DNA of 64,000 nt. Origin: Lophium mytilinum (lineage: Eukaryota). The stretch lies in the NCBI GenBank assembly GCA_010093605.1, contig MU004182.1, positions 62,001-126,000 on the forward strand, read 5' to 3'. The notes below the pieces were generated by a model. That model was not told where the DNA came from. It saw only the letters and a list, made by a program, of their open reading frames with translations, and did not search any database. Every line of letters starts with the position of its first letter. Position 1 is the first letter of the stretch. Below, one piece after another: positions 9,723 to 64,000 of the stretch. Made by a program: the position numbers and the translations under genes.

Positions 9723-12700
9723 TCACACACTGACAGTTCGTCGAACCCCAACGACAGGCTTCTGCGCATACCCAATCAGCAGCCTAAAGCTCGTCCCGCG
9801 CTTCTCACACTCCCGGATCAGCGCCTCGTCGGTCCAGATACTGCTCTCCAACGCCTTTGCTGGCTCGGCATCGGTCGGCAACACGGCAGCCTCGTAGCAG
9901 CGGCTATACCACCACCTGCCCACCCTCGCAACCATCTCCGCGATGCCATCATCCACCGAAGACGCCTTGGCAGGATCAGAAGGCGACGGCGAATTGAGGA
10001 GGTCAGAAAACGACAGTTTCTGCGCCGCAGTCTTGTCAGAATCCGTAGCAGTGCTGGTGCTGCCATCGCTGTTGAGAGTCGCGTTCGCGGTAGGCAAGTG
10101 GCCCGCGACAGGAACGCCGACGAAGCATCTCGTTACTCCGCTGAATCCGCGGCGGCCCAATAGGCCCATGACCTCATCGCTCACGTTGCGCAGGCTGATG
10201 TTCTCCTCGGTGGCTTGCAGGCGGACTTTCAATCCCCGCACGGCCCGGCGGGCTCGGTTGCCCATGTTCACGAGGTCGAGGTCAAGGACCGAGATCTCGA
10301 GATATCCGCCAGGGCGGAGCACGCGCTTGCACTCGGAGACAATGGAGCGGTGGACTGAGGATGGCAAGGCGGCGGGGAAGCGCAGGACAACCGTTGCGAA
10401 GAAGCCTCTTGGGAAAGGGAACGGGTGGACAAGCGAGGGATGGGCAATGTGGCGGTGGTTGGGGAGAGTAGACCAGGGTTCGCCTGTGGAGGTGTTGGCG
10501 TTCGTGCTAGACACGCCCGGGCCAAGGTTGTAGACTGTGGCTTCGGGGTATGTGAGAGCGCAGTAGTAGGACCAATCCTTCCCAAGGCCATCGATTACCA
10601 ACACGCGGTCTTCTGCTGGATCTTTGAGTTCGAAATGAGCAGGGCTGAATAAAACGCGCCCGAAACTGAGCCATTTGCTTGTCATCAGGGCGCCAAACCT
10701 GAGGTTCGCCATCGAAACAAGTCCGTCGTTCTGAGCTTCCGCCATCTCGATCAGCCGAGTGTCTCTGTACCTGTTAACCGCGCTAGAGTTGCTATTGCGG
10801 CTCTTGTCAGAAGTCGACGCCAGCGTAGCCTTGGACTGGCGTGCACTGAGGCTGAGTGACGCAGGGAGACTCGAGCGAGTGGAGCTAGGGCGGTTCTGGG
10901 GGCCGGATCCAGACGACATGCGGGCACTGGAGAGGCTGAGGCGGCCGGTCACAGGGTCAATGACGCTTAGGTTGCGTTCACCGTAGCCGGCGAAGAATTC
11001 AGACATAGAGAGAGGCGTAGTAGGCGTTTGGGCAGAGTGGAGAACAGCTAGAAGGCGAGAGCGGCGAAGATGTAGCGAGGTCGTTGCGGGACCTGTGGAC
11101 GAGCCACCAGAGTTAGAAGTACCGTGTGTCCGCTTTGGCTTGGTGCTTAGGGTCAGTGGACCTGGAGGTGGCTGACGATTCGACCTTCCCTCGTTTGCTG
11201 CGAGGCCGTTGGACTGATACGATGTGGCTTTCTTTGAGTCCGTTGGAGAGAGAACTTGATCAATGAGGTCATCATACTCATTCCATAGCTCGTCCTCGGA
11301 GAGCGGCGCAGTTGGATCAGGAATAACAGCAGTTCCAGTAGTTGGCGGGAAGCTCCAGATACCCGAGCTGCTGGAGTACGACAGCTCCGAATCTTTTCGA
11401 GGTGGAAACTTGAAAAACTCGCTAACATTGGAGTCGTGGCGATCAGGGCTGATCCCAGCAATTGCAGATCCATGGTTGAGGGCATTGAGTCCCTGGAGGA
11501 CAGGGAACGACTCTATTGGTCCAGAGGTAGCGAGTACAGAGTTTGTGGAATCAATCGAAGTCCGAACGGGAATAGAGGGATGAGGCTGATCAGGAACAAA
11601 CGGCCTCGAAAAGGAAACCGACGGCGGCTTTCGATCTCGGTCTCTTCTTGACACAACTTGTGGAATACGTCCAACTTGAGCAAGCCGACTCGGCCTCGGA
11701 GGAGGAAACGATGGTGGGGGTGCCGGCGGAGAATAGGCCTGTGGAGCAAAACACTTTGGTGGGACTAAAGTCTCCGGTGGAGACAAAGGTCGTGGTATTT
11801 CCCTTTCTGGAAGCTGCTCCTGGGGAGGTGAAATGGGTAGGTTGGGAATATGGTTGAAGAAATTATTATTAGGCGACGCGTGATGCTCGGCATGCTGTTC
11901 TCGTCGCAATGTAACTTGGGGTGAGGCAGGTCTAGTTGGTCGTGCAAACTCGGAAGGGAATGCGGGCGGCGAAGGGAGCAGCATTGACTCAACATGTCCC
12001 TTGCCAGGACGCTGTTGAGATTGCTGAGCGGGCTTTTGATCCTCAAAAGTGGACTGCTCCTCTGGAGTACTGTCAGCCTCTTGCATAATCTGCTCCAAAT
12101 CTTCCAGGTGCATCCCGTTGGGGGGGTCCATGAGCGCGTAGTGAGCGACGGAGCGCGATGTGGTAGGTCTAGGCACAGGAGCGCTTTCTACGACGGGCGA
12201 ATCGGCCTTAGGTGCAGCGTGAGCTCTCTGGAAGAAGTTCCATTTCCTGGTCGGCTTCGCTGCGGGGGCAGCCTTCTTCGACTTGAGCCAGTTGCCCTCC
12301 TTGCCTTCGGAAACATCGTCCACTCCGGCACGGGACTTGTTGGAGGCAATGGACTGCTTCCCAGATACTGCACTATCAAGACCCTTCATAGACTTGTTAT
12401 CTGAAGTATTGACTGGGGAAGGGACTTTGGCAAGTGCTCCTCCTTCCATAAATTGTGATCTCCGCGACGTGCGACGAGCAGCAAGAGATGGAAGGAAAGA
12501 ACGCTTCGATTCATCGTCGCTTGCCGAAGACCTGCGCGAGGTCATCGGTGGTCTCTTCATTGGCGACCCGGTGCGAACTGGATCAGACATGGCTGAAGGA
12601 AGCAATGTCGGCTTGCTAGCTTCGACACCGTTTCGTGTAGACGAGACTGGCTTTTGAGTATTGGGGCCAATTCTCATCTCGATGCTTGGTCGATCGGTCT

Positions 12701-14657
12701 CAATGCTGCTCACGCTGCGCATTGGTTCTGGGCTTCGAGAGAGCTCTGAACTGCCAGCTCCCCGGATGACCACAGGTGCGAGTCTTTCCAAGAAGAAATC
12801 ATCCATCTCAGCGCTGGTGGTGCTGGTCATGCTGCTCTTACGGCTTGATGGTGTCCTGTTCAAGCTCTCCGTGGTTGTGCCAGCACTAGCGGTTCCGCCG
12901 ACGCTGTTAGCGCTCGCAGAGCTTCCACTGCGACCCCTGACATTGTATTTGCTGTAGCCTTCATGGCCAGTGCCAGCCATCGGACCCTTTCGCTGCAATT
13001 TCTTTTCCGACTTAGAGGATGTCGCGGTCGGATCTGTCTTAGTCCGTCGACCGAAGAAACCAAATCGCGACGTTTTGCTCGGGCTTGGGACGGGCGCAGG
13101 AGATGGCACCGTCTTTGCGCGCCTCTTTTCTGCGTCGCTCTGAGCATCCGGAGTTGTGCCTCGGGTTGGCACGCGAGACATTGGAGCAAAGCCGGAGGGA
13201 AGACTGGGATTAGGCGATGGGTTGCGCGAAGGCGGCTTCGAAGGAGCACCAAACCGAGCCTTGCCGTTAGAGAATGGAGGTGGAACGCCTGTTTTTGAGT
13301 CCGACGAGCTTGTACGCTTGTGAGGTGATGGGAAACTCGACATATTGCTCTGAATGATAGGCGAAGGTTCCCGTAATCCGACAATATCGGAGGTACCATC
13401 CCGGCTAGGTCTAGCTGGTCTCCGAGTCGATGGCCTTCGTAGCTGTGCTTGGTCTGCTAGATGGGCGAGTTCCGGTGGAATTTGGGTTTGCTTTGGGACT
13501 GTCGAAGGTCGTGGCGACAGCTGGAGCTCGAGAGACTTGCCAGGTTGAGAGACATCAGTCTGGGATACGGTGAAGTACATGGATGATATCTGAACAGGAG
13601 GGCTTGGGGGCGGTGCGTCCAGACGGTTGTTTTGGTTCCTCTCCCTTTCTTTCTGTCTTACAGAGTCCTGACGAACTGTCGACGATGACGACGTTGAGAT
13701 GGTCGATTCTCTGACGGACGAGAGACCATGTTGCTGGCGCAGGTTGGAGGAAGCTTCAGGTGTTCGCCGTGTGACAGGCGGCCTACTTTGCATAGGGCTA
13801 GCCTGCCTCATTCGTGTGGGCTTTGTCGTCATCACAACACCAGGTGAGTAGGAGGACATTGACGTCGGGGTCGATGTGACGCTGAAGGGTCCAGGGGATT
13901 CCGAGTACCGGGTTGAAGGGGTGGTGGAGAGAGCATAGGTAGGCGCTGGAGGTGGCAAATCGTCGGTGGCTAATTGATATGCCATGTTGTACCCATAGTC
14001 TGGCCTTTCGGGAGGAAACAGTTCCGGCTCAGCTCGAGCCAGGATTGAGGAGGTCGGCGGTAACGAGATTCCCAAGACTGTCTCCGAAAATGGATCCTTG
14101 TAACCACCCGGAATTGCCCTCCTTGCCTGTCCATCTTCTTGAGAGGACATGGAGTCCGATCTCGTGCGCGACGTTTGCCTTGCATTCCCAACTCCAATAG
14201 ACGATTGTTTCCGCCTCAGTATATTCGACCTCGGACTATCGATGGTTGACGCCGACGATCCAGAAACCAGGGAGGGCGTACGAGCAGCCGGGGCAGGCTC
14301 GAATCGAGGGAGGCGAGAAGACGAAGGTTGCGGGATAGAACGGGGTATTGACATGGCCGGAGGCCCATGTAGTATAGATGAGGTGGGCTTCGACGTGCCT
14401 CGGCGACTCCCATCCGTTACTAAAGATTTCGACGCGGCCATGCGCTGATTGTCTACCAGCCCGCCGCGTTGGTTCTGCTCATCTCTCGTGTATTTTTTCT
14501 TCTGTAGCTTTGACGGGTTCGGAGTGGGGATTTGTGACTGTGCGGAAGTAGGTGTGACAGAGCGCGAGGGTAGACGAGTGGACGGTGCGCGCTGGGCGTA
14601 CGGCGCCTGGAGGTCCGATCTCCTTGGAGGGTTGAATTGTGATTTATAGGATGCCAT
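9723..14657 (-). CDS. 1644-aa protein: long S/P/R-rich disordered region plus C-terminal SAM-methyltransferase-like domain
   Basis: Uninterrupted ORF. The C-terminus has LRFGALMTSKWLSFGRVLFSP, RVLVIDGLG, FPFPRGFF and ECKRVLRPGGYLE, typical of a conserved fungal Methyltransf_11-like family. Confidence 0.85.
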   Translation of the reverse strand: MASYKSQFNPPRRSDLQAPYAQRAPSTRLPSRSVTPTSAQSQIPTPNPSKLQKKKYTRDEQNQRGGLVDNQRMAASKSLVTDGSRRGTSKPTSSILHGPPAMSIPRSIPQPSSSRLPRFEPAPAARTPSLVSGSSASTIDSPRSNILRRKQSSIGVGNARQTSRTRSDSMSSQEDGQARRAIPGGYKDPFSETVLGISLPPTSSILARAEPELFPPERPDYGYNMAYQLATDDLPPPAPTYALSTTPSTRYSESPGPFSVTSTPTSMSSYSPGVVMTTKPTRMRQASPMQSRPPVTRRTPEASSNLRQQHGLSSVRESTISTSSSSTVRQDSVRQKERERNQNNRLDAPPPSPPVQISSMYFTVSQTDVSQPGKSLELQLSPRPSTVPKQTQIPPELAHLADQAQLRRPSTRRPARPSRDGTSDIVGLREPSPIIQSNMSSFPSPHKRTSSSDSKTGVPPPFSNGKARFGAPSKPPSRNPSPNPSLPSGFAPMSRVPTRGTTPDAQSDAEKRRAKTVPSPAPVPSPSKTSRFGFFGRRTKTDPTATSSKSEKKLQRKGPMAGTGHEGYSKYNVRGRSGSSASANSVGGTASAGTTTESLNRTPSSRKSSMTSTTSAEMDDFFLERLAPVVIRGAGSSELSRSPEPMRSVSSIETDRPSIEMRIGPNTQKPVSSTRNGVEASKPTLLPSAMSDPVRTGSPMKRPPMTSRRSSASDDESKRSFLPSLAARRTSRRSQFMEGGALAKVPSPVNTSDNKSMKGLDSAVSGKQSIASNKSRAGVDDVSEGKEGNWLKSKKAAPAAKPTRKWNFFQRAHAAPKADSPVVESAPVPRPTTSRSVAHYALMDPPNGMHLEDLEQIMQEADSTPEEQSTFEDQKPAQQSQQRPGKGHVESMLLPSPPAFPSEFARPTRPASPQVTLRREQHAEHHASPNNNFFNHIPNLPISPPQEQLPEREIPRPLSPPETLVPPKCFAPQAYSPPAPPPSFPPPRPSRLAQVGRIPQVVSRRDRDRKPPSVSFSRPFVPDQPHPSIPVRTSIDSTNSVLATSGPIESFPVLQGLNALNHGSAIAGISPDRHDSNVSEFFKFPPRKDSELSYSSSSGIWSFPPTTGTAVIPDPTAPLSEDELWNEYDDLIDQVLSPTDSKKATSYQSNGLAANEGRSNRQPPPGPLTLSTKPKRTHGTSNSGGSSTGPATTSLHLRRSRLLAVLHSAQTPTTPLSMSEFFAGYGERNLSVIDPVTGRLSLSSARMSSGSGPQNRPSSTRSSLPASLSLSARQSKATLASTSDKSRNSNSSAVNRYRDTRLIEMAEAQNDGLVSMANLRFGALMTSKWLSFGRVLFSPAHFELKDPAEDRVLVIDGLGKDWSYYCALTYPEATVYNLGPGVSSTNANTSTGEPWSTLPNHRHIAHPSLVHPFPFPRGFFATVVLRFPAALPSSVHRSIVSECKRVLRPGGYLEISVLDLDLVNMGNRARRAVRGLKVRLQATEENISLRNVSDEVMGLLGRRGFSGVTRCFVGVPVAGHLPTANATLNSDGSTSTATDSDKTAAQKLSFSDLLNSPSPSDPAKASSVDDGIAEMVARVGRWWYSRCYEAAVLPTDAEPAKALESSIWTDEALIRECEKRGTSFRLLIGYAQKPVVGVRRTVSV

Positions 14658-16794
14658 GTCGAGGAACCGCGGCGTGCGACCCTGCTGGGAACCACGGGAA
14701 GCGGCTGACTGGGTCCTGTACTACAACTTCTCGTGCGCGCCAAGTTCTTCATGAAGGCATATGGTCAAATGTAGTACTACCCGTTCCAACGCATGTCAGC
14801 TCGAGCAACCACCAAAAAGCAACAGGTCGCGGGCAGAACGTACCCAGACGCGGTCAGCAATGGTCAGCCAAGGCAGAATGCGTAAGCCTTCTGGAGGACG
14901 AGGTCCCAAGGTCGTGGGGTTATGAGGCGTTCGGGGGTGGCGACTCCGGCAGGCGGGACGAGGCAGTAATATAAACGGCTGCATGGTCTGTTAGTTGGGC
15001 GGGCCGAGTACTTGGAGTGGAGGCTTTTGGGAAGACGTGCCTGTCGTGCGAAAGTTGCGCCACTGGCTCGGATGCGCCGAGAGCGAATCGGCGGGGCAGT
15101 GTGGCTCAGCGGCGACTGGTCCCTGCGGGTTTCTGAGACGCCTGCAGACGTTTGACAACGCAGAGCAGAGGCCAAAAAAGAGCAGGAAACAATGAGGCTA
15201 TGAAAAATAGCGGACACTTAGTTTAAAGGTCTCGTTCAGCGGGGGGTGGCGTGGGGTCGTAGAAAGTCGAGGCGCAGACTGAAGCCGCGAGTTGCCGTAT
15301 GGGGACGATGCAGTGAGCACTGAGCAGCCGGGCTCTTCGAGAATTAGGGGGCCTAGGGAATGGTTGGACAGTATTGCTGATGAGGCTCCTGGTGCTGACT
15401 TCTTCGGAAGGTGTGGAGAAGGGCACGCAACTCGATATGTATACAGGCCTGACCCAGCCGCGCGACCGCGATGCGTAAGAAGCGATCAACGCGCCGTCCG
15501 GGACGCCAGAGCTGCCAGGAGCTGGGCCGCATCGCCAGGAGGCTTCCGCCATAACGGCGCTTGCGCCCGAGTGGGCCGCGCTGGGGGCTGCGAGGGAAAA
15601 GCACAGAAGCCGGCAGCACGACGCTGAAGGGACCCCAGGACCACTCGCGGGCGGGCGTTGGGCGGGCCCAAGGCGATTCGCAGACACCAGCCCAGTGGAG
15701 CCGGCGAGAGCAGTCCATGCACGAGGGCGCTCCCGTTATTCGTGGAGGGCTGCAGGTGGGATGCAGGAGGGCATGATCAGACGAGAGCCCCGTTGGCTGT
15801 CGCCGCGTCGTCTCGCCATGGCCCTGCCTATTGCGCGCAGCAAATTCATGCTCGTCTTCTGATGATCGACCCCAGAGGAACCTCGCAGCTGCGCTCTAGA
15901 CGGATTTCAGAGACGAATCGCACGGCCGTAGGAGGAAATTCGCCACGTAAATCGGTGTGATGAGGCTTGAGCTACTGCAGGCCCCTAGTTAGCTCGGTAT
16001 TCACAAATTTTCACAAAATGCCCACTAGTAGGGGGCCCCCTAGTTAGCGGCATACCTAGCGTAAGGCCTGCATGCCCGGAGACCTTAGATAAGGTCTCTA
16101 ATTAAGGCAGCTCGTGCAGGCCGTATATAGTAAGGCGCCGCCAAGATAAGGCTACTGGCCCGTTCTATCTTATTATAGCCCTAACAATCTATAGATCCTT
16201 CTAAGAATCCTTAACTTCCTTATATTATAATCGCCTGCACTATAATTAAGGCCTAAGGCTATATATAAGGCTGTAAAGGAGGCCTAAGGCTATATAGAAG
16301 GTTAAATATATAATAAGATTTATATTTTTAATGCTATTTTTAATAAAAACGGCCGGCCGATAATATAGAGAGAGGAGAGGAAGTAGAAGGCGTAGAAATA
16401 TTATAGAAAGCCCTTAACTAAATATTTAAGAGGAGGAAGATCTATACGCTATTTTATTAGTAGTAGAATTACCCTATTATAATCTATTATTAGCTTCTAC
16501 CTTAAATTCTTATAATCTCTATATAAACCTTAATTTTTATTATATTATAATATCCTCTCGCCAGCCTAATATTTCCTCTCTTCTTAATGCCGCGCCTGGA
16601 GTTCCGCAGCTGTATAGAGTTCCGTAGCTATACGCAGTTCTATAATATGCGCTGCTACCCTTCTATCTAATTATTTCTTGCCCTAAGCCTTTAGTAATAC
16701 CTCTATAGCCTCTATAGGCTCCTCTATAGGCCCTAGGGCCTTACCGCGCGCTCTATAAGATTAACGCGAATAAATAGCCGGAGCTTATTAAGCT

Positions 16795-17611
16795 GGATAA
16801 TAATATAGATAATATTCTGTAGACTTAAGAGTACTCTAAGGTAGAGGATAAGAACGCCTTAATAGTCCTTCTACCCTTCTATAACGTTATTTCTCTAGAG
16901 ATATATAAGTAATTAAGGCCGGCTAAGCAGCTCTACTTTATTAAGCTGCTAAACTAGTACTGCTACTAGGCCTATAAGCGTTAGCTTAAGGCGTATATAG
17001 AGAGGATAGTAGTAATAATAAATAAGCTTATAGGCTGTATGGAGCGCGGCTATAACTTCTATAATAAATATAATTAGTTAAAGAATAAAATTAATAAGAG
17101 AATTACTATCTAAAAGGGTAAAAGAGAGAAGACTAGAATAGTATAGAGAGATAATAAGTACCTATAGCAGCTTAACGTCTTTATTATAAAGGCGGCGGAT
17201 ATAAATAAGGTAATTAAAAAGAAGCTTTAAGGCCTACCTAAGGTATAAACCTATAATAGCTAGCAGTAGGCTGTTATTATTAATCTTACGCGCTTAATTA
17301 GTATAAAGAGAGGAATTAATAATATTAATGCACTAGAGGAGGCGCCGCGGCCTTAGCGGAGGCCTAGTAGAGGATCTTTACGCCGCGGAGGGTTTACGGC
17401 TGTATACCGCATGCATTAAGAGGTTAAGGAGCGTTAAATTGCTTATATAGATAAGAGAGAGAGGCGCCGTGCGGCTAAGGCTAAGGCTTAAATTAAGAGG
17501 ATAATGGCGGGATAGAGAGAGTTATTTAAGGCCTTTACACGGGGCCTAGTAATTTCTATCTAGGCTATAATAGATTCTACTTAAATAGTAAGTAACTATA
17601 AGAAGCTGTAG
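16795..17611 (+). pseudogene. RIP-mutated second ORF of the Harbinger element (putative Myb/SANT-like partner)
   Basis: One continuous charged, helical-looking frame whose stops are all TAA/TAG revertible to CAA/CAG/TGG. Partner identity is inferred from Harbinger two-ORF architecture, not from a clear motif. The 5' end is uncertain. Confidence 0.5.
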
Positions 17612-18283
17612 GCGTCCTACTATACTACTAATTAACTATACTATAAGAGGGTAATTACTAATATAGAAAAAATATAGAGAGACTCTAAGCGGCCGTCTTG
17701 CGTTTAAACTAAGGCAACTAAGGGCGCTAAGTATAGTAGGACTCTTGGCGAGGTTGCTGGTAATATAGAACGTGCAATTAATAATAATAGAGAAAGAAAG
17801 AAGAGTGTTATTAATAGAGGAGAGAATAAGAGGGCGTTATTAGCGGAGGAATATAGCCCTATAAAGGTGGCTAGCCTAGCTAGCCTTAATTTAGGGCCTA
17901 ATACCTCTAGAGACTTATATTTTTTTAGTTCCGCTTTTTATAACTAATGTATTTTAGACGCTATTACTTATAGGTGGAAAGTAAGTAGTGTAAATTATAG
18001 CGGCGACTATTAGCTATATTTTCTAGTTATTTTTAAATAAATTAATAGACTTTTAGTGTTAGTTTTATATATATAAAGTAGGTAGATGTAAAATTAATAT
18101 TATCTATAGAGTTTTAATTTTCCTCGCTTATTTTGCGAACTAACGGGAGCTAACCTAAATAAACGCGTCTAATTAGCCAATTTCTTGCGTAATAGGCAGC
18201 AGTAACGTTAGTTTACACGCTAGTAATAAAATAGAAAGGCTGTATAAAATAGAAAGGCTATATAAGTATAGTAATACTATAAT

Positions 18284-19545
18284 TTAGCCTACTATAACCT
18301 TAATTCTATACTCCTATACGCCCTTCTTAACGCCTAGGTACTTCTTAATATTAGGCGTGCCTATATTATACACGTCCGCCATCTAATTACCCCGGAAATA
18401 GCTTAAATAATTTGTTAGTAGCACGGTAATAATATAATAGCTTCCTACGGGCAATAATTCTATTCTTATTACTAACCTAAATAAACTAAAACTCTAGTAT
18501 TTTAATACTAAACTAAAGCCGTGCTTAATAGCTATATATAGGCTTACCATCTCTCTATTATACTAATATTAATTAGGGCGCCAAGCTATATATTTCTCTA
18601 GCCTCCCTTTAAAGGTACTAATTATGCCCTATCTATTAATATATGCGGAATTGCTATAAAGATACTAAACTTTCTCTAGTAGAAGGTTACTATATAGCTC
18701 TACTAGCTTTATAGATAGCCCGGACTCCTCTATTATTATAAAGTCGCTAGTACTACCTAGAAATAGCCTAGTAAGAGACTAGATTATACTGTTAGAAGTA
18801 ATAATAGACTAGAACTTAAGGTAGCAGTACTTTTTATACCCGGAGTATATTATCCGCTAGATCCGGGGGTTCTTTAGCTATATAATTAGGCGAGTAGTTC
18901 TATCTATATAGCCCTAGACTTTACTAATACCTAGATAAGGTTCTATAGCTATTATATACTTCTCTAGCTTCTTGCGTATAAGCTACCGCCTATTCTAGTA
19001 TAGCCGCTACTACTACTAATCTATAAGAAAGATAATAGTGTTTCTAAATATAGTATAAAGCTATAAGCGGCTATATCTAAATACTACTAGTATGTTACTA
19101 AAGCGGCGTGGTGTTAAGAGGCGCTAAAGAAGTACGTAGAGTGAGAGAATTAGATAAGAATAACGCCCGTAAGTATACTTAATCTTATTAAGCTAGAGAA
19201 GCACGGCTAACTATTTAATTTCCTTATAGTTAAAGCGCATCTTAAAGCGCGCGCGCTTATTAGTAAGCTTATTATTAAACTAGCGCATAAAGTTAACCTA
19301 ATTATACAGCAGTAAATTACGTAGTTAAGAAATAAAGCTATCTAGAACCTTATTAACTTCCTCTTTAGCCTCTATCTTATCTATCTTAGCGGCCTTATTA
19401 TTAGTAAGGGTATATTCTTCCTTATCTAATAGCTCCGTAAGCTTACTAACGTTAATAGTAGCGGCCGCGGTAGCTGTAATACTACCTAGAAGGGCTATAA
19501 GGGTAGTAATACAAGAATTATAATAATTTTCTATATTTTAATATG
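18284..19545 (-). pseudogene. RIP-mutated PIF/Harbinger DDE transposase (DDE_Tnp_4)
   Basis: Minus frame reads V*GYIDRT (VWGYIDGT; DRT at 18896-18904), YSGYKK..LKF*SIITSNSII (YSGHK..LKFQ..TPDGII), ESGL, YLYSNSAY (YLYGDSAY, 18641-18664), NREM..IAIKHGFS (IEHGFG, 18512-18529) and LLTN..S.FRGN*. Confidence 0.85.
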
Positions 19546-22421
19546 TTTAAATAATTAAAATTAAATAAGATACAGGTGCTAATAGCTAGCAGACAAAATC
19601 CTTACCTTATTATACTAAAACAACGTCTAATCTATATTGTTAGAGGCTCTGCGCTAATCGCCTGTAACCTTATAATCTATAACACCAAGCCGGGCAGCCT
19701 AAGCCGTATACGGAGGCCTTAAACGGGTGGAAATTGAAATCCGATTTTTATGAAAATCACGCGTCAATGGCGGCCAGGGTAGCCCCCTGTGCTAATTTGT
19801 TAGTGTCACCACCAAAATCGGCACACCTCTTACCCCTCCGAGCCTAGCTGACCGCCGTGCAGATACTAGCGTAATTCCGTTGAAATCCGTCTTCTCCCGC
19901 CGCCAGTTCCGATAGATCTGCTGGGGCTGCCTCTCGACAGCTGACGTTGCGAACAGACGAGTCAACACCAACGAAAGCTCTCACCGCAAGACACACCGCT
20001 GCTGAAAGAGCGCCTTTGCTTCTACCGGCTGGCGCAAGCTAAATCGAGCAGTGAGGACGATGAAAAGGACCTAGCGACCAACATCAGACCGCATCCTTCC
20101 GAGCTGGGTCCGAAACCAGACCATGGACATGATAGGCTGTATGCGCCTCTCTCCAAACGGCAGCAGGTGGTGTTGACGCCTCACTGTGCGGCCGTACTCG
20201 GCCTGGAGAAGCAAAAGACGCGCAAGTGCAGTCCAATCCTGCCATGGACAACGGCCTGCCTTGAATCGCCGCACTCGCATGCACGACAAGACCCAGTGAC
20301 CGCTCCTCTGCAGTGCTATTCTGAGACCCTCGTGATCGGTGCTCGTGCGAGAACCGTCATGGAATCTTGGTACGCGAAGGAGCCACAGCCGTCGAACCGG
20401 AACGGCCGTCCCAGGGAAGCTGAGAAGTGGCTAGGTGCGTCCCTAGCTGCATACAAGTGAGGCTGTGCTAGGATCGCCAACGCCACTCTGCCAGCGCATC
20501 AAAACTGACGCTGTAGCCTGCGCGGCCTCCGAGAGCTTTGGTTTCGAGAATAGAAAGCGAAAGATGTTGGGTGTGAAGCAGTTCCAACATGCTCAACGCT
20601 CGCGGCCCACCTCGCGGGGGGAAGAGGGACTTTTCCCAGCACCCAGGAGTGTCTCAAGCCACCACCACAGCTAATCCCTGTCTTGGCGCCTTGATTGGCT
20701 CCGATCAGTGTGCGAGCACTGGCCCTGGTCGCATGGTGTTTAGATCATGTGACTGTTCTATGCTCGAGATGGTGTGGTCATTTCTCGAAGTGGTGTGCTG
20801 AAATAAATTGCTGTCCAATCAGCTGCTGAAGATGCACTTTGACGATTTTACTCGCTCACGCGGAAACAAGGGACGGTTCGACTTCCCATCCGTCCGCCTC
20901 ATATCCGTCCGCTTCTCGCAAGGTTTGACCCTCGAGTCTCCTGAGACATCTTTCTCTCCGTTCAACGGCGGCGGTGGGCCCCGGGGCAGACGGGGAGACC
21001 TGCCTCGAATTCTGACTCGTCGCAATCGCAACTGCGGCGCCTATCGACACGGACAGACATTGAATCATCTAACATGTATTCCGCTCTCTGGCAACCATTC
21101 TAGCCACCTCTGACTTCGATGCCCGCTATCGGCATGTCGTGATATCAGGTGACGCTCCAATTTCTTTCATCCGGTGATTCGAGGTAGGCGAGTCCCTACA
21201 AGTCCAGCTTGGTTTTTGTTTTGGACTTGGATAGTCAGAATTGTTTCTTCTATCCTAGTGAGTGGTTGTACTACTTCCTTGATCATAGGATGAATGTTTG
21301 TGCTCGGCGAGGATTCATCGGCCTCGATTATGGAGTGGATGATGACTCGTGCTTGTGCCGTGCCGCAAGCCCTTGGACCGATCTTGAAGGGCCTAGCACC
21401 AAGGTTCGAGACCATGAAGCCGAGCTAAGGGCTTAGAGTTTGACGGGAAGTTCGGCTCGCCTTGCAGCCTTGCGGGTGGGGAGAAAAGCATGACGGCACG
21501 GCACGGGTTGCTCCCTCTGTGGCTGCGAATCATCACGAAGAATGCTCCGAAATGAAGTGCGGGAGTGCTCAGGCCCTCCGTGGGTGCCGTGCGGGCCGTA
21601 ACTCGACCAGGTCGCGAAATGAAACATGATGAATTGAGGAGATTGGCTATATACACACGGCTGTGACGCTGAGATGAGATGGTGTTGAGGCCCGTGAGGA
21701 CATGATCAAAGCTCGGATCGAAGGATCGCTGCTGCTTGCACTCGTCATCCACATCTCGAGTATCTGTAAACATCTGTCGGGGGGAAGTCCGCTTCCGGAA
21801 AGCTTTGCATGATGAATGTGATGAGCGCTTAGAGAGATGCGCAAATGTGACCGAGACCGTGCCGGCACATAGTGAAACGGATACCGTTGAAGATAGCCTG
21901 AATCTTTGTTAGTCACAGAAACAAATGGGCTGACGGGTTGAGCGAGACGATCAAAGCAGTCCCTACATGCTCGATGATGTTTCTGCTAGGATGTGATACC
22001 CAGGTGTGAGGTTGAAGTAAGGTGGTCGGAGAATACGCTAACCTGTTTTGGCGACTAGCGGCTCCACTCAAACACACCTCCAACAGACGACGCAACGTCC
22101 TGTCACAACTCCCATCATCACTCCCGATCTTTTGAAAGACTAGCACTCCATGGAATACTGCTAGGAAGAGTGCCTGAATACAAAGTCGCCGAACATCAAC
22201 TTTACCACCTGTGCAACCGTCAAGAACGCACGTGTGCAAGCTCCCATCAATCCACGGCCGTGATATTGCGCACCACTCATCTCTCTTGCGCAGTTTAGAC
22301 CAAACCACAACGACCGTAGACCCAATATCACCACGTTAAACACAAGAAACGAGGAGCAGCCCCATACTACCTCCCCAGCTTCGCCCACCGAAAACCCTAC
22401 AGGAAGCTAGCAACACCCACA

Positions 22422-56212: not shown

Positions 56213-57487
56213 CGTTGCGACGATATTTCCCACAGATTCGGCCGACAGACTGGACCATAAGGTCGTGAAGACCCATATCGAAGAATCTGTGGGTGAGAGC
56301 ACTGGCTTCCGGACACAAGGGGTGAGGAGGGTCTTAAGATGTCGAGTGAAGGTCGAACAGTAAGTGCAGTCTGCCTGGAGTTTTTATACGTGGGTCTTTC
56401 GGCCGGCATTCAGGTACAATTATTCATAGCGCACTACAAGAAATCATGCGAGTTGTAGGTAACTATGGTTGATGGCGATTAAGTTCCGTGGGTCACTCAC
56501 ACGCGTGGATACACACCATCTTGGCATCCGAGACGGCCTTTATTGATTTTCGTCGTCACGTAGTATTGGCAACCGCGGAGCCAAAAAGTGCACGCAGAGT
56601 TAAAAAGTCGTCGGAGTGGCGCAGTACAAGTTGGAGGGAACTCCCGGTCCGGATCCAGAATGTCGATGTCCATGCCAGTGTGAGTGGAGGTGTCATCATC
56701 GCCATCGAGTCTTCGTATGTGTTTTAAGAACTATACAGGTGCGCAGGGGAAAGGGCGCTAGAGGTGAAATCCAGACTGACTTGATCCATCACTCCAATAG
56801 CGGCTAGGCATACGTGGCGACGCAAGCGATCCAGGAAGCGACTAGGGCAAGTGATGTTGAAGAAAAGGCGGAAGCTCGACGGAAGGAAGCAACTTATAAC
56901 GTCTCATGCTCATTTAGAAGGAAGCACTCTGTCGTGACTTGTGAAGGAGCAGCAGAAGGCAGTCCTTAGCGCCTCTTGTTGTTCTAGATATACCGAAGTA
57001 CTTCAGAGAGCGGTGAACCAGTATAAGGAGACGTCGTCATGGCAAGTGAGGCATGAAATAGGTGGCACTCTATTCTGGCTTTTGTACACCTGTCTAGCGA
57101 TGCTTGTGGTGCTTCAATGTACTTTTGAAATTATAAACGAGGAAGAAACTCTTACCCATAGGCTATAGTAAAACTTCTTAAAGCACTCTAAGCAGTGGTA
57201 GACAGGTGTCCCTACCTACTAGGTAGAATGGCCATGTGACAGCGTGGTAGATAAGTGGCTGTAGAAATTAGTAGTCCACGACTCCGTGAGGTATACAGAC
57301 GGTGTTGAACTGCTTGAGTGTGCTAGCCACTTTGTTCCTGCCCAGCGTGCACGGAAAGGAGTGAGTGGTCCAAGCGCGGTTTCTCTATTCTAGGTACCCT
57401 CCATCCGTCAACATCGACAATCATCTCCGCACCTCACATCAATCCATCCTGCGACGTTAACACCGGTATCAGACTACGCACAACATA

Positions 57488-58960
57488 ATGAGCTCAAAAA
57501 GTGATATAGGTGCGTGTGTTTAAGCCCAGCCCTTTCTCCCCTGCCTACTGATTATCCGCGTTAGAGCATGAGAGCCGTAAGGCAGAGAGTGAGGATCTCA
57601 TCTAGAGTTTGGCACCGGCGATGGGCTAACACTCCACCCTCAAGTCTCGCCTGCTAGCCAGAACAGCGCTGTCCCACTCTTGCAGCCATGGACCGCCCAG
57701 GATCTCCTACGAGCCGAAGGACTCAAAGCCCAAACTTCACGAGAGAAGTATCATCTTCATCTCGCGAAAGCCGTTGACGCAGGACTCCTTTCGCTGGACC
57801 AGGCAAAATGTGAATATCACCCAACGACTGAGGCCGAGATTGCGGCTGGCTTGGCGAGAACCAACGATACAGCGGAGGTGTACTTTGCTAGCCGAGACAC
57901 GGTTGTACATCGTCGACCACTTGAGGTTGAAGAGTTGTTGCAAGTCTTTGACAAAGGGTCTATTGGTGCATACGTTCTGCGTCTAGAGGCTGAAGTCCAC
58001 GGGGCGGAGAGATTCACATCGATGGCGAAAGAGGAGGTTATGATGGCTAAGGAAAAATGTATGAAGGCGATGGAAGAGGTTATGATGGCGAAGAAAGAGA
58101 TTGTGGTGGCAAGAGAGAAAGGGTGGGCAGAAGCTAAAGAGGAGGCGGAAGATGAGCGAAAGATGTTGATAAGAAAGCTGAAGGAGACAGAGCGTGAAGT
58201 CAAGGAACTAAGGCTTGCGCTTGGTGTAAAGCTCGAAATTCGCAGTGTCTATCTGGCTATGAGAGCTGAGGCATTCGAGGCTGGCCGTCAGGATATGAGG
58301 GATGAGATAGACGTCCACGAGAGAGTGGAGACGCCTTCCACTCAACGCGATGCGGAGAAACCTTCACCAGACGATTCCGAGGGGCCTGCTACATCTGACC
58401 AGAACTCTCGAAAAATACGTAAAGAGTCGCAGAACGAACAAGTTGATAACTTGAGCGAAGATATCGGAGTTCCGGGGTTAATCGCATTGGGAAGGCCACG
58501 GAGCAGAGTAACATCGCGATTAAAATCTTCAGGGGTACTCAAATCAATGTGGGTCGAGCAGGATCTTGCCAAAGCCGTCCTCGCTGCCGCAGGTAGCTCC
58601 GATATGGGCCAGCTTCAGCAATCGTTCCGGCAGGCCAAGCTGTACGGTTGGCGCTATTCCGCTCTTCACCACAAGCTGAAAAGCCTTCTTGGCCTTCGTG
58701 TTTTGGACATCGGCTGCGGCGATCAAAACATGCCTTGGTGTATCGAAGATTTCGTCGAGGAAGATTGCACACAGATTAAGTACTTTCTAGACGATGGTGA
58801 GACATGGATCTCCATCTTCGACTATTTCCAGCAGTACGGCAGAACTATGTTGACGCCCGGATTGCCGCTTGTCAAGATGAGCGAGGGAAGCCAGATCTAC
58901 TTTCCGATCGATGTTCTCCGTATTGCACCAGGCAACCCCTGGCCGCTGCCTGAGTTCTAG
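57488..58960 (+). CDS. Coiled-coil protein with C-terminal stand-alone PAZ-like domain
   Basis: ATG 57488; introns 57510-57564 and ~57576-57644 join ORF 57680-58960. Heptad repeats, and the C-terminal LKSLLGLRV..ISIFDYFQQY..L.PGLPLV..IYFPIDVLRIAPG matches the Argonaute PAZ consensus as I recall it. Confidence 0.7.
58022..58126 (+). repeat. Five degenerate 21-bp coding repeats (heptads)
   Basis: MAKEEVM/MAKEKCM/KAMEEVM/MAKKEIV/VAREKGW; gaggttatgatggc occurs twice. Confidence 0.75.
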
Positions 58961-59783
58961 ACCTCGGTGGTTTGACATTGAAGGCGAGTATGAAGGACTG
59001 TTAGGGGTCAGTACTGTATGGGATATATAAGATTATGACAACTTTGTAGTACTAGAAAGTACTGTTTTAACACACTTCCACCAAGTCTTATACCATCGTG
59101 TGAAGCCTTCACTGCCATGTCTTGATTGCTGATGACCTGTGAAAATTTGGAGCACGGGAATTGGACTCACATTTCGTAGAAACCGCTGGCAAATGGACAT
59201 CACTGTCTAGAGTCCTTCACCAGGCCACCCAAAATTCAAATAAGAAACAAATTCTTGGAACGTTCAAATCGGGTCTCTGACCTGGTGCTTTTTCACCGCG
59301 GCGTGAATGTTGGGGGCAGGTAGCGAACACTACTGTCTGAAGTCCTTCAATACCTTTCAGAACTCTGACTCAGGGTGCAAAATTCTGGAGGACGCAAATC
59401 AGGCCACTAGCATTATATCCATACACCACCGCTTGAAGTTCCCTAGAGTTTCCTGTAGTCAGGATGTGATGTAGAGTTCTGGAGCCTGCGCATCAAACCC
59501 TGAATTTCCACTGTTTACCAGGGCCTGAAGTTCTCCAATGCAGCATTATACACCCAAACGCAACGTGAATTCTTGCAGCACGCGAACCAGACCCACAGCT
59601 CCCATCATGTACCAACGCCAAACGTTCCCCAGCGCACCCCCGGAAATCCGAGCAGAACGCCAAAGCACCCAAACACGACCAACCACACATCTCAAAAAAT
59701 CATCACTATGTATATCATTACCATTACACTACCCTAACCCCACCCATCCACTTCTTCTCCTCCCCACCCCTCCCACTCCCACC

Positions 59784-61013
59784 CTAATACTTCGGCCGCA
59801 CAACCTCCCCATACGGCGGCGGCGCCGGCTCCGCATGCCCCAGCATCGGACTCACGGCCCCCTCAGCCATCGGACTCCCCGGCGTCGCATAACTCAACGC
59901 CGGACTCAGCATCTCGGGCTGCGGACTCACGGGGCCGTATCCACCGCGCACCGTGCCCGGGTGGCTCACCATGCCCATCCCGTATGTGCCCGCGTCCTGG
60001 TGGTGGTGTTGTTGTTGCTGCAGCGGGACGGATTCGGGGTGCGGCGAGGCGGGGTAGTCGTTGAGCGGGGGCGGGGGCATTGGGGGCGGGTTTTTGCCGT
60101 AGGGGTTGTATTTGTTGCGGCGGCGGCGGAGGAGGAAGAAGGCGAGGGCGCCGGCGAGGGCGAGGAGGAGGAGGGGGCCGAGGACCGCGCCGGCGATCCA
60201 GGCTTTGTTTGCGCTCTTGTGGTGGGAGGTGGAGGGTAGGGTGGTGGAGGGCTGGGTGCTGGTGGAGGCGGTGGAAGTGGATGGGTTTGGGGAGGCGGTA
60301 GAGGAGGCGGCGGCGGGGGATGCGGTGGTTGAGGCGGCGGCGGGGAGGGTTGTGGAAGCTAGATTTTGGTTAAGTCCGTAGATAATGGAATTGCAGACTT
60401 CGAGGGGGTTTGGATTGAGAATTGGAGGGCTGCGTACCTGCTGCTTCGCCGGGAGATGTCAAGAAGTAGACAATCTCTGTCTCAGTCGCGCAACCCACCC
60501 AGTACCAACCCGTGTTCTCTCCAGTCTTTACGAGGATGAAGTCCGTATTGCACGATGAGGGATGAGGGCTGCTGAATATTAGCTTTTCAAGGATCTCTTG
60601 AATCGATGATGTTTTAGGGGATTGCAGAAACACACCATTCGGTTTCAAACCCGCCACCAAAGACAGTATTTCCTTTGCAGCTCGTTGCAAGTATGCAATC
60701 CTCATCAGATGGACAGCAGCCAGCGTACTGATCGCCGAAGAACATGGTAGAACCATCATCGCAGTAGGCGGCATCATCTTCATACCTGTATTAGCATTGC
60801 CGGCAAATGGAAGTAACAACAGTAGTATGACCACGTATACGTACAAGTGCCTGAAGTGCTGAAGTACCCGATGAACGAGTCACCTCCAAAGTCGGTCGTG
60901 AAAAACTGCCTGGGCACAACAGGCGCAGGTGTCACAACGGGTTCCGGAACCGCATCTACCAACCCCACAAACAACCACGACAATGCGATAAAAGAAAATG
61001 CGAATGGCTTCAT
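59784..61013 (-). CDS. Secreted-signal, Cys-rich, S/T-stalk single-pass membrane protein (Mid2-like), multi-exon
   Basis: Signal peptide MKPFAFSFIALSWLFVGLVDA, Cys-rich exons, A/T/S stalk, KAWIAGAVLGPLLLLALAGALAFFLLRRRR transmembrane helix and a Pro-rich tail. Confidence 0.8.
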
Positions 61014-62094: not shown

Positions 62095-64000
62095 TCATAT
62101 TATAGTAACAGTCTTCTCGACTGCGTTGGAAAGGAGATCATGTGCGGGGAGCACCGCGGTGTATCTCTGACCCACACAATAGACGCCGATTCTCTCAAAC
62201 AGTCCAGTACCTGAGCTAGTCTCCCGTATCAAGAGAGCCTCGCATCCGGTTGGAGACTCTACCCTTTCATTATCCCAAGTGCTCACAATCATGTAATACA
62301 ATCTCCGGTCAAGGCTGAATTCGCGCAGCTCCTCCATAACTTTATCTGAGACCAGAAATCTTTCCTCAGGCGTCGAGTGTACAGGTGATCGTTGTCCTCG
62401 AGAGAGGCCTAGCTTTGGCTTTTGGTATTCGTAGCGTATTTTTACTAGGCCCATATCATCGAGGTGCAAGTGCGCTTTCCCAAGTCCCGGTCCCGTGGAA
62501 TTGATCAAGGCCAGCGCTTCCGATTGGAATCGGGCTGCTACCAGCCACCCTCGAAGAACGATGTGCCCACTTTTCACCTCCCCGGTAGGGTCTAGTCCAA
62601 GCGACTCACACTGTACATCCACAACCTCGCACTGTAACTTATGATCTCGGTACGATGCGAAATAACATCCAAAATCGACAGCGCCATTGACGGATGCCCA
62701 TGACCAGCTAGGAGCTCGATACGAGTCGCTCCCTCGAGCTAGATCGGGTCTTCGTTTATTGGGTTGGTCGTCTCCGTGCCATAAGAGGCCTCTTGGCAAC
62801 TGTGACTCCCATATGCCAGCGAAATAGGCGCCAAATTCTTGTTGTCGGAAACGTTTCGCGAGTCCTGAGACCGCAGGAAGCTTGTCCGATATGTACGAGA
62901 GCTGGCAACGACTATATGCTTGAACAACTTTCTCCCAAGGTCCAAACGGCAATCGTATCACGTTAGCCCAGCCTGTATCTGCTGATGTATCCTCCGGATG
63001 GGGTATCTCATCAGTCTCCAACCGTAGGAACCGAAATTTGTCATGCTGCTCTTCGTCAATTCCTGCAGAAAAGGACCCGCATTCGCAGTGTGTGGCCACC
63101 CTACAGCGCCAATACACTTCGAAATGCCGATAATAGAGTGCACGAGGGGATAGATATCTTTCTTGAAACGCCCAGCCACGTTGGTAGAGTGGCAAGGGTG
63201 GCTCTTCCTGGACTTCTGCGCGATCTCCGTGAGCGATCGGCCTGCGGGTAAAAGCACACATTGAACCGCCACCGCTTTGCTCCACTTGAATAGGATGTAC
63301 GTGCTCATGAGGACTTCCTTCTTTTTTCTCGTATACGTAGTGACGGTCGTGAAAACATCCGTAGTCGGCGTTCGGGGCAAGAGCGGCAAATATGTTCAAA
63401 ACACCATGCTCATAGATGCTGGCCATCTTCGAAGACTCAATTTGCCAATCATCATTGCTGTCTTGCAGGATGCACAGGCTGTCAATCCAAAGATAGCGAT
63501 AACCTAACCTCCGCGTTATAATCACAGCATCTTGAAAGGTTTTTGGAACTAATTCCCAGGGAATGTTCTCTTTCCATCGATTGAGCGTCTTGCTATCAGA
63601 CTTGAGAAATTCTTTGCCTCCCCAACAGTATGACAAAGTAAAGTAGGGTGGGATCAGAGTGTGGACATCGCAAACTCTGATATTTTGATTGTCCGAGTCG
63701 GTGCCAATGTCAATCAAACGCGCTGGTCTGGGGTTTACGCCGCCATTTGATTGTGAACAGATGTCGTGTTTCTCAAGGCATTCGTGCAGCCACTTTGATG
63801 CTAATTGGAATGTAGAATTTGCAGATGAGTTTTGCGGAGGGGTTCGACCAAATCCAAACTGGTCGTGGCCGTCTTTGAAACGTAGGTCAGTATCGTAGTA
63901 CGACGGAATAGTCGACACAGAGCAGTATTGAAGATATCCCAGTGCCTGAAAGACCACGGACACATTCAAAACTATGTCTATCGTAGAGACGACATATGCG
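62095..64000 (-). CDS. Heterokaryon-incompatibility HET-domain protein (PF06985-type); 5' end probably outside the window
   Basis: WLHECLEKHDIC, PARLIDI, YFTLSYCWG, PKTFQDA, RYLWIDSLCILQD, W..ESSKMASIY, RGWAFQER.LSPR, DKLPAVSGLA and APSWSWAS. Confidence 0.92.
   Translation of the reverse strand, partial: AYVVSTIDIVLNVSVVFQALGYLQYCSVSTIPSYYDTDLRFKDGHDQFGFGRTPPQNSSANSTFQLASKWLHECLEKHDICSQSNGGVNPRPARLIDIGTDSDNQNIRVCDVHTLIPPYFTLSYCWGGKEFLKSDSKTLNRWKENIPWELVPKTFQDAVIITRRLGYRYLWIDSLCILQDSNDDWQIESSKMASIYEHGVLNIFAALAPNADYGCFHDRHYVYEKKEGSPHEHVHPIQVEQSGGGSMCAFTRRPIAHGDRAEVQEEPPLPLYQRGWAFQERYLSPRALYYRHFEVYWRCRVATHCECGSFSAGIDEEQHDKFRFLRLETDEIPHPEDTSADTGWANVIRLPFGPWEKVVQAYSRCQLSYISDKLPAVSGLAKRFRQQEFGAYFAGIWESQLPRGLLWHGDDQPNKRRPDLARGSDSYRAPSWSWASVNGAVDFGCYFASYRDHKLQCEVVDVQCESLGLDPTGEVKSGHIVLRGWLVAARFQSEALALINSTGPGLGKAHLHLDDMGLVKIRYEYQKPKLGLSRGQRSPVHSTPEERFLVSDKVMEELREFSLDRRLYYMIVSTWDNERVESPTGCEALLIRETSSGTGLFERIGVYCVGQRYTAVLPAHDLLSNAVEKTVTII

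Follow-up and report, generated by a model that had tools for sequence, protein, structure and literature searches.

Can a PAZ domain outlive the protein it came from? PAZ is familiar as a component of Argonaute and Dicer, and the question is raised by a gene of the ascomycete Lophium mytilinum that lies in a 64,000-nucleotide stretch of contig MU004182.1 (assembly GCA_010093605.1, positions 62,001 to 126,000; this whole stretch is referred to as the window, and its own numbering is used below). The gene occupies 57489-58960 of the plus strand and encodes the 445-residue protein P0001 (BU16DRAFT_577234). We find that the C-terminal part of P0001 is a genuine homologue of the fungal Argonaute PAZ domain, joined to an N-terminal half that has no likeness to Argonaute, and that several residues which in Argonaute hold the 3' end of a small RNA have been replaced. 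The gene is probably a lineage-specific chimera of L. mytilinum in which the PAZ fold has been retained and the ligand site rewritten.

A first-pass annotation, made from the sequence alone, had described the locus as an intact-looking spliced gene, and this description holds: a two-exon model reproduces P0001 letter for letter over all 445 residues, and exon 2 sits inside a stop-free frame of 455 codons (57593-58960, plus strand). P0001 is not unannotated, since it is named "hypothetical protein BU16DRAFT_577234" in one source and already carries the label "PAZ domain-containing protein" in another. The parts of the gene and its product are as follows.

57489-57510, plus strand: exon 1, consisting of an ATG, seven further codons and one base; it equals residues 1-8 of P0001 once the intron is removed and has no support from the contigs of sequencing run X3.
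57511-57644, plus strand: predicted intron, with a GTGCGT donor, a GCTAAC branch site at 57625-57630 and an AAG acceptor; required to yield P0001, splicing unconfirmed.
57645-58960, plus strand: exon 2, including the stop codon at 58958-58960; an open frame with a 100% match to P0001.
57653-58390, plus strand: orphan N-terminal half, residues 11-256, defined by BLASTP to Mytilinidion resinicola P0002.
57959-58327, plus strand: two long predicted helices, residues 113-166 and 169-235, coiled-coil-like in the full-length AlphaFold2 model at a predicted local distance difference test (pLDDT) score of approximately 70-84.
58021-58110, plus strand: tandem repeat of 21 nucleotides (a heptad of seven amino acids), 4.3 copies, within a helix; found by Tandem Repeats Finder and by a second repeat search.
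58328-58543, plus strand: low-complexity linker, residues 236-307, predicted to be disordered (AlphaFold2 pLDDT below 50 over residues 232-310).
58544-58933, plus strand: Argonaute-derived PAZ-fold domain, residues 308-437, supported by Pfam, phmmer, BLASTP, tblastn, Foldseek, alignment and tree.

The PAZ likeness of the C-terminus is far beyond chance. Run on the 437-residue translation of exon 2, the Pfam PAZ profile PF02170 matches residues 345-429 (profile positions 22-105 of 123); this comparison, which the first-pass annotation had proposed, thus succeeded by E-value (5.3e-5) and failed by the curated gathering score (23.6 bits against a cut-off of 28.8). A phmmer search with the last 156 residues against 1.84 billion representative proteins returned seven matches at E ≤ 1e-3, namely P0001 itself, five Argonaute-type proteins (E 1.6e-9 to 4.9e-4) and one RTX-repeat protein, the last of which we regard as a repeat-driven false positive. 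The nearest BLASTP match of the PAZ piece is P0079, an Argonaute of M. resinicola (59 of 133 residues identical, 44%; E 2e-31), followed by the Lepidopterella palustris Argonaute P0078 (47 of 130, 36%) and by Argonautes of the Pleosporales at approximately 28-35% identity. For a broader comparison set, a search seeded with P0005 from Massarina eburnea scored 187 candidates, of which 96 reached E ≤ 1e-5; each of these carries Argonaute-type Pfam domains, and 95 carry Piwi; in a BLASTP-type comparison, 91 of 100 Argonautes match the PAZ piece at E ≤ 1e-3. The piece groups with the PAZ domains of Argonaute, not with those of Dicer. A search for longer relatives of residues 290-445 found none among 764 candidates at E ≤ 0.001, a weak negative in that its word filter also missed known Argonautes.

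The borders of this homology coincide with those of the domain. The first-pass annotation had read the last ~95 residues (58670-58935) as PAZ-like and had placed the end of the reading frame where linker L2 would begin. Both readings stand, and the first can be lengthened: the homologous span covers 58544-58933 (residues 308-437), from the Trp that closes linker L1 to the VLRI strand that closes PAZ, and is followed by eight unrelated codons and a stop at the point where Argonautes enter L2.

Structure prediction agrees with this assignment. An AlphaFold2 model of the last 156 residues, built on a six-row alignment, reaches a mean pLDDT of 76.4, with 55 residues at 90 or above and the core above 90. 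When the model was compared with solved structures by Foldseek, as had also been proposed, the top match in the PDB was the PAZ domain of human AGO2 (6ra4_A; E 1e-7, template modelling (TM) score 0.78 by target, root-mean-square deviation 2.5 Å). At E ≤ 1e-3 the comparison gave 53 matches in the PDB, and every one listed is an Argonaute or Piwi PAZ domain; the nearest solved structures (6ra4, 8thq and 1si2, human AGO2/AGO1 PAZ) have TM scores of 0.78-0.83 by target and deviations of 2.4-2.5 Å. The fold match is not fully independent of the sequence homology, because the input alignment of the model was made only of Argonautes. A phmmer search of the PAZ piece against PDB sequences gave only two unrelated matches (E 0.71 and 1.2), because a search with one sequence does not reach as far as the Argonautes of humans and plants; a profile search against the PDB was dominated by Argonaute rows and was used solely for mapping residues.

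Is the rest of an Argonaute, or of a Dicer, encoded nearby? The first-pass annotation had seen no MID/PIWI or RNase III remnant downstream, and the comparisons made here bear it out. All 109 stop-to-stop open reading frames (ORFs) of at least 50 residues between 52214 and 63999 were compared with Pfam, and none matched Piwi, ArgoMid, ArgoL1, ArgoL2, ArgoN or RNase III at E ≤ 0.1. Searches of the whole window by tblastn with four Argonautes (P0003, P0005, P0078 and P0079) gave matches confined to 58544-58930, also with relaxed settings near the gene. Elsewhere in the window, 45 larger ORFs gave matches to ordinary families only, with no RNase III at E ≤ 1e-4, and Pfam scans of the ORFs found no other RNA-silencing gene in the window. 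The polypeptide holds neither the MID and PIWI domains that define an Argonaute or Piwi protein nor the RNase III domain that stands beside PAZ in Dicer.

The N-terminal half has a different ancestry. Residues 11-256 are identical to the 245-residue M. resinicola protein P0002 at 163 of 254 aligned positions (64%; BLASTP E 6e-103), and P0002 ends before the PAZ region and has no PAZ domain. No other homologue of this half was found among 8000 scored candidates from a collection of 5.8 billion proteins, it matches no Pfam family, it has no look-alike in the ESM Atlas (best feature score 0.86, TM ≤ 0.34), and its best comparison with the 100 Argonautes, at E 2.6, is no match. In a full-length AlphaFold2 model (mean pLDDT 59.8), short helices of low confidence precede the two long helices, a disordered stretch (residues 232-310) and the PAZ domain. 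The earlier call of an unrelated coiled coil at the N-terminus is consistent with this model, in which the half is predicted to be helical and coiled-coil-like, without Argonaute likeness. A homodimer prediction for residues 100-240 scored 0.30 against a mark of 0.32. The 21-nucleotide repeat encodes MAKEEVM-type heptads in the first long helix and is expanded relative to P0002, which has a 21-residue gap because of this tandem repeat in the Lophium gene; the expansion suggests that helix length evolves by repeat slippage. We also considered the linker as a decayed relic of L1 and rejected this, since 163 of 500 shuffled sequences reached its Smith-Waterman score against the N/L1 region of P0079.

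The union of these two parts was seen in no other protein among the billions compared, so the architecture is a singleton. A search for orthologues of the same architecture, suggested by the first-pass annotation, accordingly found none, and the sole relative of the N-terminal half, P0002, lacks PAZ.

We then asked where the PAZ piece came from and how it has changed since. In a FastTree phylogeny (LG+gamma) of the PAZ region from 100 Argonaute-type proteins and the Lophium piece, with no sequence dropped, the Lophium piece is sister to P0079 (support 0.92). Each of the two carries an additional Trp ahead of its I(S/T)IFDYF motif (ITIFDYF-type), and both share a WCI..F...DC(T/S) stretch with P0078. 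The closeness to P0079, the sister placement and the common Trp point to the Mytilinidiales lineage's own Argonaute as donor. In M. resinicola, P0079 and P0002 are each recorded on a contig 2,943,684 bases long, a shared size that makes their linkage in that species possible; the PAZ gene may thus have arisen by deletion and fusion of neighbouring genes, next to an Argonaute, or else by capture of a fragment. No L. mytilinum Argonaute is among the 96 proteins of the P0005-seeded search, which is weak evidence that the full-length orthologue of P0079 has been lost.

Divergence after this event was fast. The terminal branch of the PAZ piece, at 1.446 substitutions per site, is the longest of the 101 (median 0.24, 95th percentile 0.84) and is 9.3 times as long as that of P0079 (0.155) when both are measured from their common node. 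Within the domain, 19 columns reach a conservation of 85% or more among the 100 Argonautes; 14 of these are kept in Lophium (W310, L315, A318, S346, L352, V360, I374, D391, Y401, P415, V417, P428, L432 and I434) and five are changed (His to G364, Phe to Y387, Tyr to G406, Thr to S420 and Lys to E421). We simulated unconstrained nucleotide substitution on the 129 PAZ codons, ignoring insertions and deletions, with 1500 runs per setting: when amino-acid identity had fallen to 44-53%, the frame was still free of stops in only 2-3% of runs. The guanine-cytosine (GC) content of the PAZ part by codon position, 0.57/0.38/0.63, is coding-like. Together, the kept core columns, the stop-free frame and the coding-like composition argue that selection held fold and frame over much of the long branch.

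Can the retained fold still hold the end of a small RNA? In human Ago1, according to one report, Y309, Y314 and H269 of PAZ hold the phosphodiester between the last two nucleotides, with a water stabilised by Y277; L337 and T335 provide the surface on which the terminal sugar packs, the sugar also bonds to the backbone of Y336, and the nucleotide stacks on F292 (PMC2635679). A further paper agrees on these 3'-end contacts (PMC5896489), and Lys and Tyr occupy the 313/314-type positions in AGO1, 3 and 4 according to a third (10.1101/2023.10.27.564437). We mapped these positions through a profile alignment to 4kxt_A and through the 101-sequence alignment, with counts taken among the 100 fungal Argonautes.

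Human Ago1 H269: G364 in the Lophium protein (codon GGC at 58712-58714, plus strand; placed by profile mapping and the 101-sequence alignment); His in 97 and Tyr in 3 of 100.
Human Ago1 Y277: W372; Trp in 62, Tyr in 24 and Phe in 12 of 100, Trp being commonest.
Human Ago1 F292: Y387; Phe in 93 of 100.
Human Ago1 Y309: Y401; Tyr in 99 of 100.
Human Ago1 K313: Y405; Lys in 81 of 100.
Human Ago1 Y314: G406 (codon GGC at 58838-58840, plus strand; placed by the same two alignments); Tyr in 97 and Phe in 3 of 100.
Human Ago1 T335: I425.
Human Ago1 Y336: Y426.
Human Ago1 L337: F427.

Glycine therefore stands at two of the three positions whose side chains directly bind the terminal phosphate, those of H269 and Y314, and a Lys conserved in 97 of 100 fungal Argonautes is Glu421 in the Lophium protein. 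The set of residues equivalent to H269, Y277, Y309, Y314, F292 and L337, by which a 3'-end pocket can be recognized, is incomplete. The assignment of G364 to H269 is robust because the stretch LRVLDIGCG aligns without gaps to the H269 stretch of Ago1; the loop that holds G364 is modelled with low confidence (mean pLDDT 64 over residues 71-80 of the 156-residue piece). Tyr405, one position before G406, might partly compensate for the lost Y314. With two of the three phosphate-binding side chains reduced to Gly, canonical anchoring of a small-RNA 3' end by the PAZ piece appears doubtful. By membership, P0001 is neither an Argonaute nor a Dicer: it is a diverged PAZ-fold homologue that fails both the Pfam threshold and the pocket test. 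A variant touches the same site: a 214-nucleotide contig from the unrelated run X4, which differs from the window at five of its 214 positions and has a depth of only 2.6, carries T>C at 58896, a non-synonymous change of the pocket-lining Ile425, at the position of human Ago1 T335, to Thr.

Evidence on transcription comes from run X3, which we took to be RNA by guess; no listed run is recorded as RNA. Its contigs come without strand or local depth, and stretches without X3 cover carry no meaning. One contig of 551 nucleotides (depth 5.1) spans 57539-58089, beginning inside the predicted intron and continuing unspliced into exon 2. A second, of 2481 nucleotides and mean depth 277.5, covers 58146-58997, skips the 173 nucleotides of 58998-59170 and resumes at 59171 to run past 59800. 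The break from the first contig to the second falls at the tandem repeat (58021-58110). Two features follow from the second contig.

58998-59170, minus strand: intron of a transcript from this strand, on which it reads GTGAGT...CTAACAG (CT..AC on the plus), lying 38 nucleotides beyond the stop codon of the PAZ gene.
58146-58997, minus strand: antisense part of the X3 contig, over linker, PAZ and stop codon; part of this cover could also be sense messenger RNA.

The skipped segment is assigned to a minus-strand intron because it has minus-strand splice signals and is continuous in the DNA run X1. The transcript is probably the long spliced 3' part or untranslated region of the convergent membrane-protein gene at 59787-60458, and it enters the PAZ coding region in antisense; an overlap of this convergent kind could give rise to double-stranded RNA. 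Because the contigs carry no strand or local depth, they neither show nor exclude sense transcription of the PAZ gene.

What history would account for these observations? We suggest that the locus started as an orphan, largely helical gene, known only from the Mytilinidiaceae, and that it may have gained at its 3' end a disordered linker together with the PAZ domain of the lineage's own Argonaute, in a piece cut almost exactly at the domain borders. After this gain the piece would have evolved approximately nine times faster than its sister, keeping the hydrophobic core, and hence the fold, while the 3'-end clamp of polar and aromatic residues was replaced. The present product would most likely be a translated helical scaffold bearing a PAZ-fold module with no canonical small-RNA 3'-end binding; any activity, for example contact with a protein or a weak or changed binding of nucleic acid, would be new or residual, and the gene is probably no core part of RNA silencing. 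We hold such a chimera to be the probable explanation of the locus. Several points weigh against it: the PAZ piece scores under Pfam's own PAZ threshold; the structural match is only partly independent of sequence homology; the high-depth contig over PAZ has its splice on the minus strand, sequence of the predicted intron is present in the low-depth contig over the 5' half, and the strandless X3 contigs do not establish a sense transcript; there is no orthologue of the same architecture on which a ratio of non-synonymous to synonymous substitution rates could rest; and a frame could have stayed free of stops by chance, at the 2-3% simulated, if divergence was recent and fast.

Some of the same points would be expected of a non-functional relic, in which a degraded or duplicated Argonaute fragment came to lie in frame behind an orphan gene and the protein is either not made or inert, the transcripts seen coming from the convergent minus-strand gene, whose 3' part would be long and spliced. 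The longest branch of the tree, the loss of the two best-conserved RNA-contact residues and the singleton architecture fit a relic, as does the RNA evidence, where the sole spliced contig over PAZ lies on the minus strand and the low-depth contig over the 5' half retains intron sequence. Further, because the first in-frame ATG of exon 2 is at residue 134, the gene model depends on the unconfirmed 22-nucleotide exon 1. We nevertheless consider a relic rather unlikely: the frame runs unbroken through 445 codons although the PAZ branch has 1.45 substitutions per site, an outcome rare in the neutral simulation (which covered the PAZ part, without insertions or deletions), the conserved core positions outside the RNA contacts are all retained (14 of 14), the fold is predicted with confidence (the 55 residues at pLDDT 90 or above), the N-terminal half retains 64% identity to P0002, and GC by codon position is coding-like. 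A functional alternative was favoured in the first-pass annotation, whose captured PAZ module finds support in an Argonaute-derived PAZ domain without MID/PIWI on an unrelated helical half. The role proposed for it there, a free-standing small-RNA-binding PAZ on a coiled-coil scaffold that serves as adaptor, decoy or suppressor of quelling or meiotic silencing, would draw on the true PAZ fold, the intact frame and the near-exact trimming of the fragment to the domain, and on the retained equivalents of Y309, Y277 (as Trp), Y336 and aromatic F292 (as Tyr), with a Tyr beside the lost Y314. The pocket residues, the conservation and the expression data do not support this role, which we judge quite improbable: Gly replaces H269 and Y314, Tyr replaces K313 and Glu the conserved Lys, the G364 loop is modelled poorly, the architecture is conserved in no other genome, and the window holds no further RNA-silencing gene. 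Highly improbable, in our estimate, is a more novel outcome, in which a selected free-standing PAZ-fold protein, the first PAZ to work outside Argonaute and Dicer, would use a remodelled pocket (Gly364, Tyr405-Gly406 and Glu421) on its helical scaffold to bind another ligand, for example a 3' end that carries a modification or a phosphate, or a partner protein from the silencing machinery, and might be tied to the convergent antisense transcript.

The chimera can be set beside known PAZ-bearing systems. With the PAZ domain of eukaryotic Argonautes it has in common the predicted fold, the domain borders, the identity to P0079 over 133 residues noted above, the Y309, Y277 and Y336 equivalents and the hydrophobic core; it differs in lacking N, L1, L2, MID and PIWI, in its substituted pocket (Gly for H269 and Y314, Tyr for K313, Glu for the conserved Lys), in a branch 9.3 times that of its sister and in a score under the Pfam gathering cut-off. 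Truncated Argonaute-type proteins also occur in the libraries, namely P0003 (N-L1-PAZ-L2, 444 residues) and P0006, P0007 and P0008 (243-371 residues). These four are likewise Argonaute-derived, with PAZ and without Piwi, and may be merely cut gene models; unlike the Lophium protein, which has PAZ alone on a heterologous N-terminal half, they keep adjoining Argonaute linkers or domains, and their PAZ scores (43.8-83.6 bits) exceed the Pfam threshold. A further likeness may be drawn to the APAZ partners of short prokaryotic Argonautes, in which an N-lobe-type module stands on a separate polypeptide fused to unrelated domains. APAZ modules are prokaryotic, however, and work with a MID-PIWI partner encoded next door, and the Lophium window contains no such partner. 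Dicer, too, carries PAZ outside Argonaute, and Giardia Dicer, as described in one paper, combines PAZ with two RNase III domains (PMC4839659); by contrast, the Lophium protein has no RNase III, and its sequence groups with Argonaute PAZ. In the literature searched, nothing was found on P0001, no paper treated L. mytilinum or M. resinicola together with Argonaute, and no stand-alone PAZ protein was described in what were mostly titles and the beginnings of abstracts.

Such a gene, with PAZ alone retained on a scaffold unrelated to it, serves as nature's own test of what the fold can do by itself, and it illustrates cleanly how a new gene can be born from a piece of a silencing gene. Were it functional, fungal RNA silencing would gain a new kind of participant or regulator. 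At present it is a curiosity and not a proven new silencing factor: a chimera confined to a single species, whose RNA pocket is degraded and whose expression is unproven. It is chiefly of evolutionary value, as a case of domain capture followed by fast divergence that spared the core and rewrote the ligand site.

The PAZ gene has a DUF3431 gene upstream and two minus-strand genes downstream.

59787-60458, minus strand: gene for a Ser/Thr-rich membrane protein, convergent with the PAZ gene.
62098-63999, minus strand: HET (heterokaryon incompatibility) domain gene, Pfam E 5.1e-30, continuing past the end of the window.

The HET gene, together with many ORFs that belong to no family, suggests a fast-evolving region. 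Approximately 200-400 nucleotides upstream of the start codon lies a possible element of the miniature inverted-repeat transposable element (MITE) type (57050-57320; inverted repeat 57086-57117 / 57178-57209). Other contigs of X1 and X3 match parts of this element with loose ends, and depth there rises to ~440 against 158, so that it looks like a multi-copy MITE-like repeat. Farther away, the region 16000-20000 is AT-rich (GC 0.32-0.40 against ~0.50 elsewhere), with no ORF of at least 120 residues in 15895-19945, and may be a repeat degraded by repeat-induced point mutation. Finally, a very long orphan ORF of 1665 residues occupies 9726-14720 of the minus strand and matches no Pfam family at E ≤ 1e-4.

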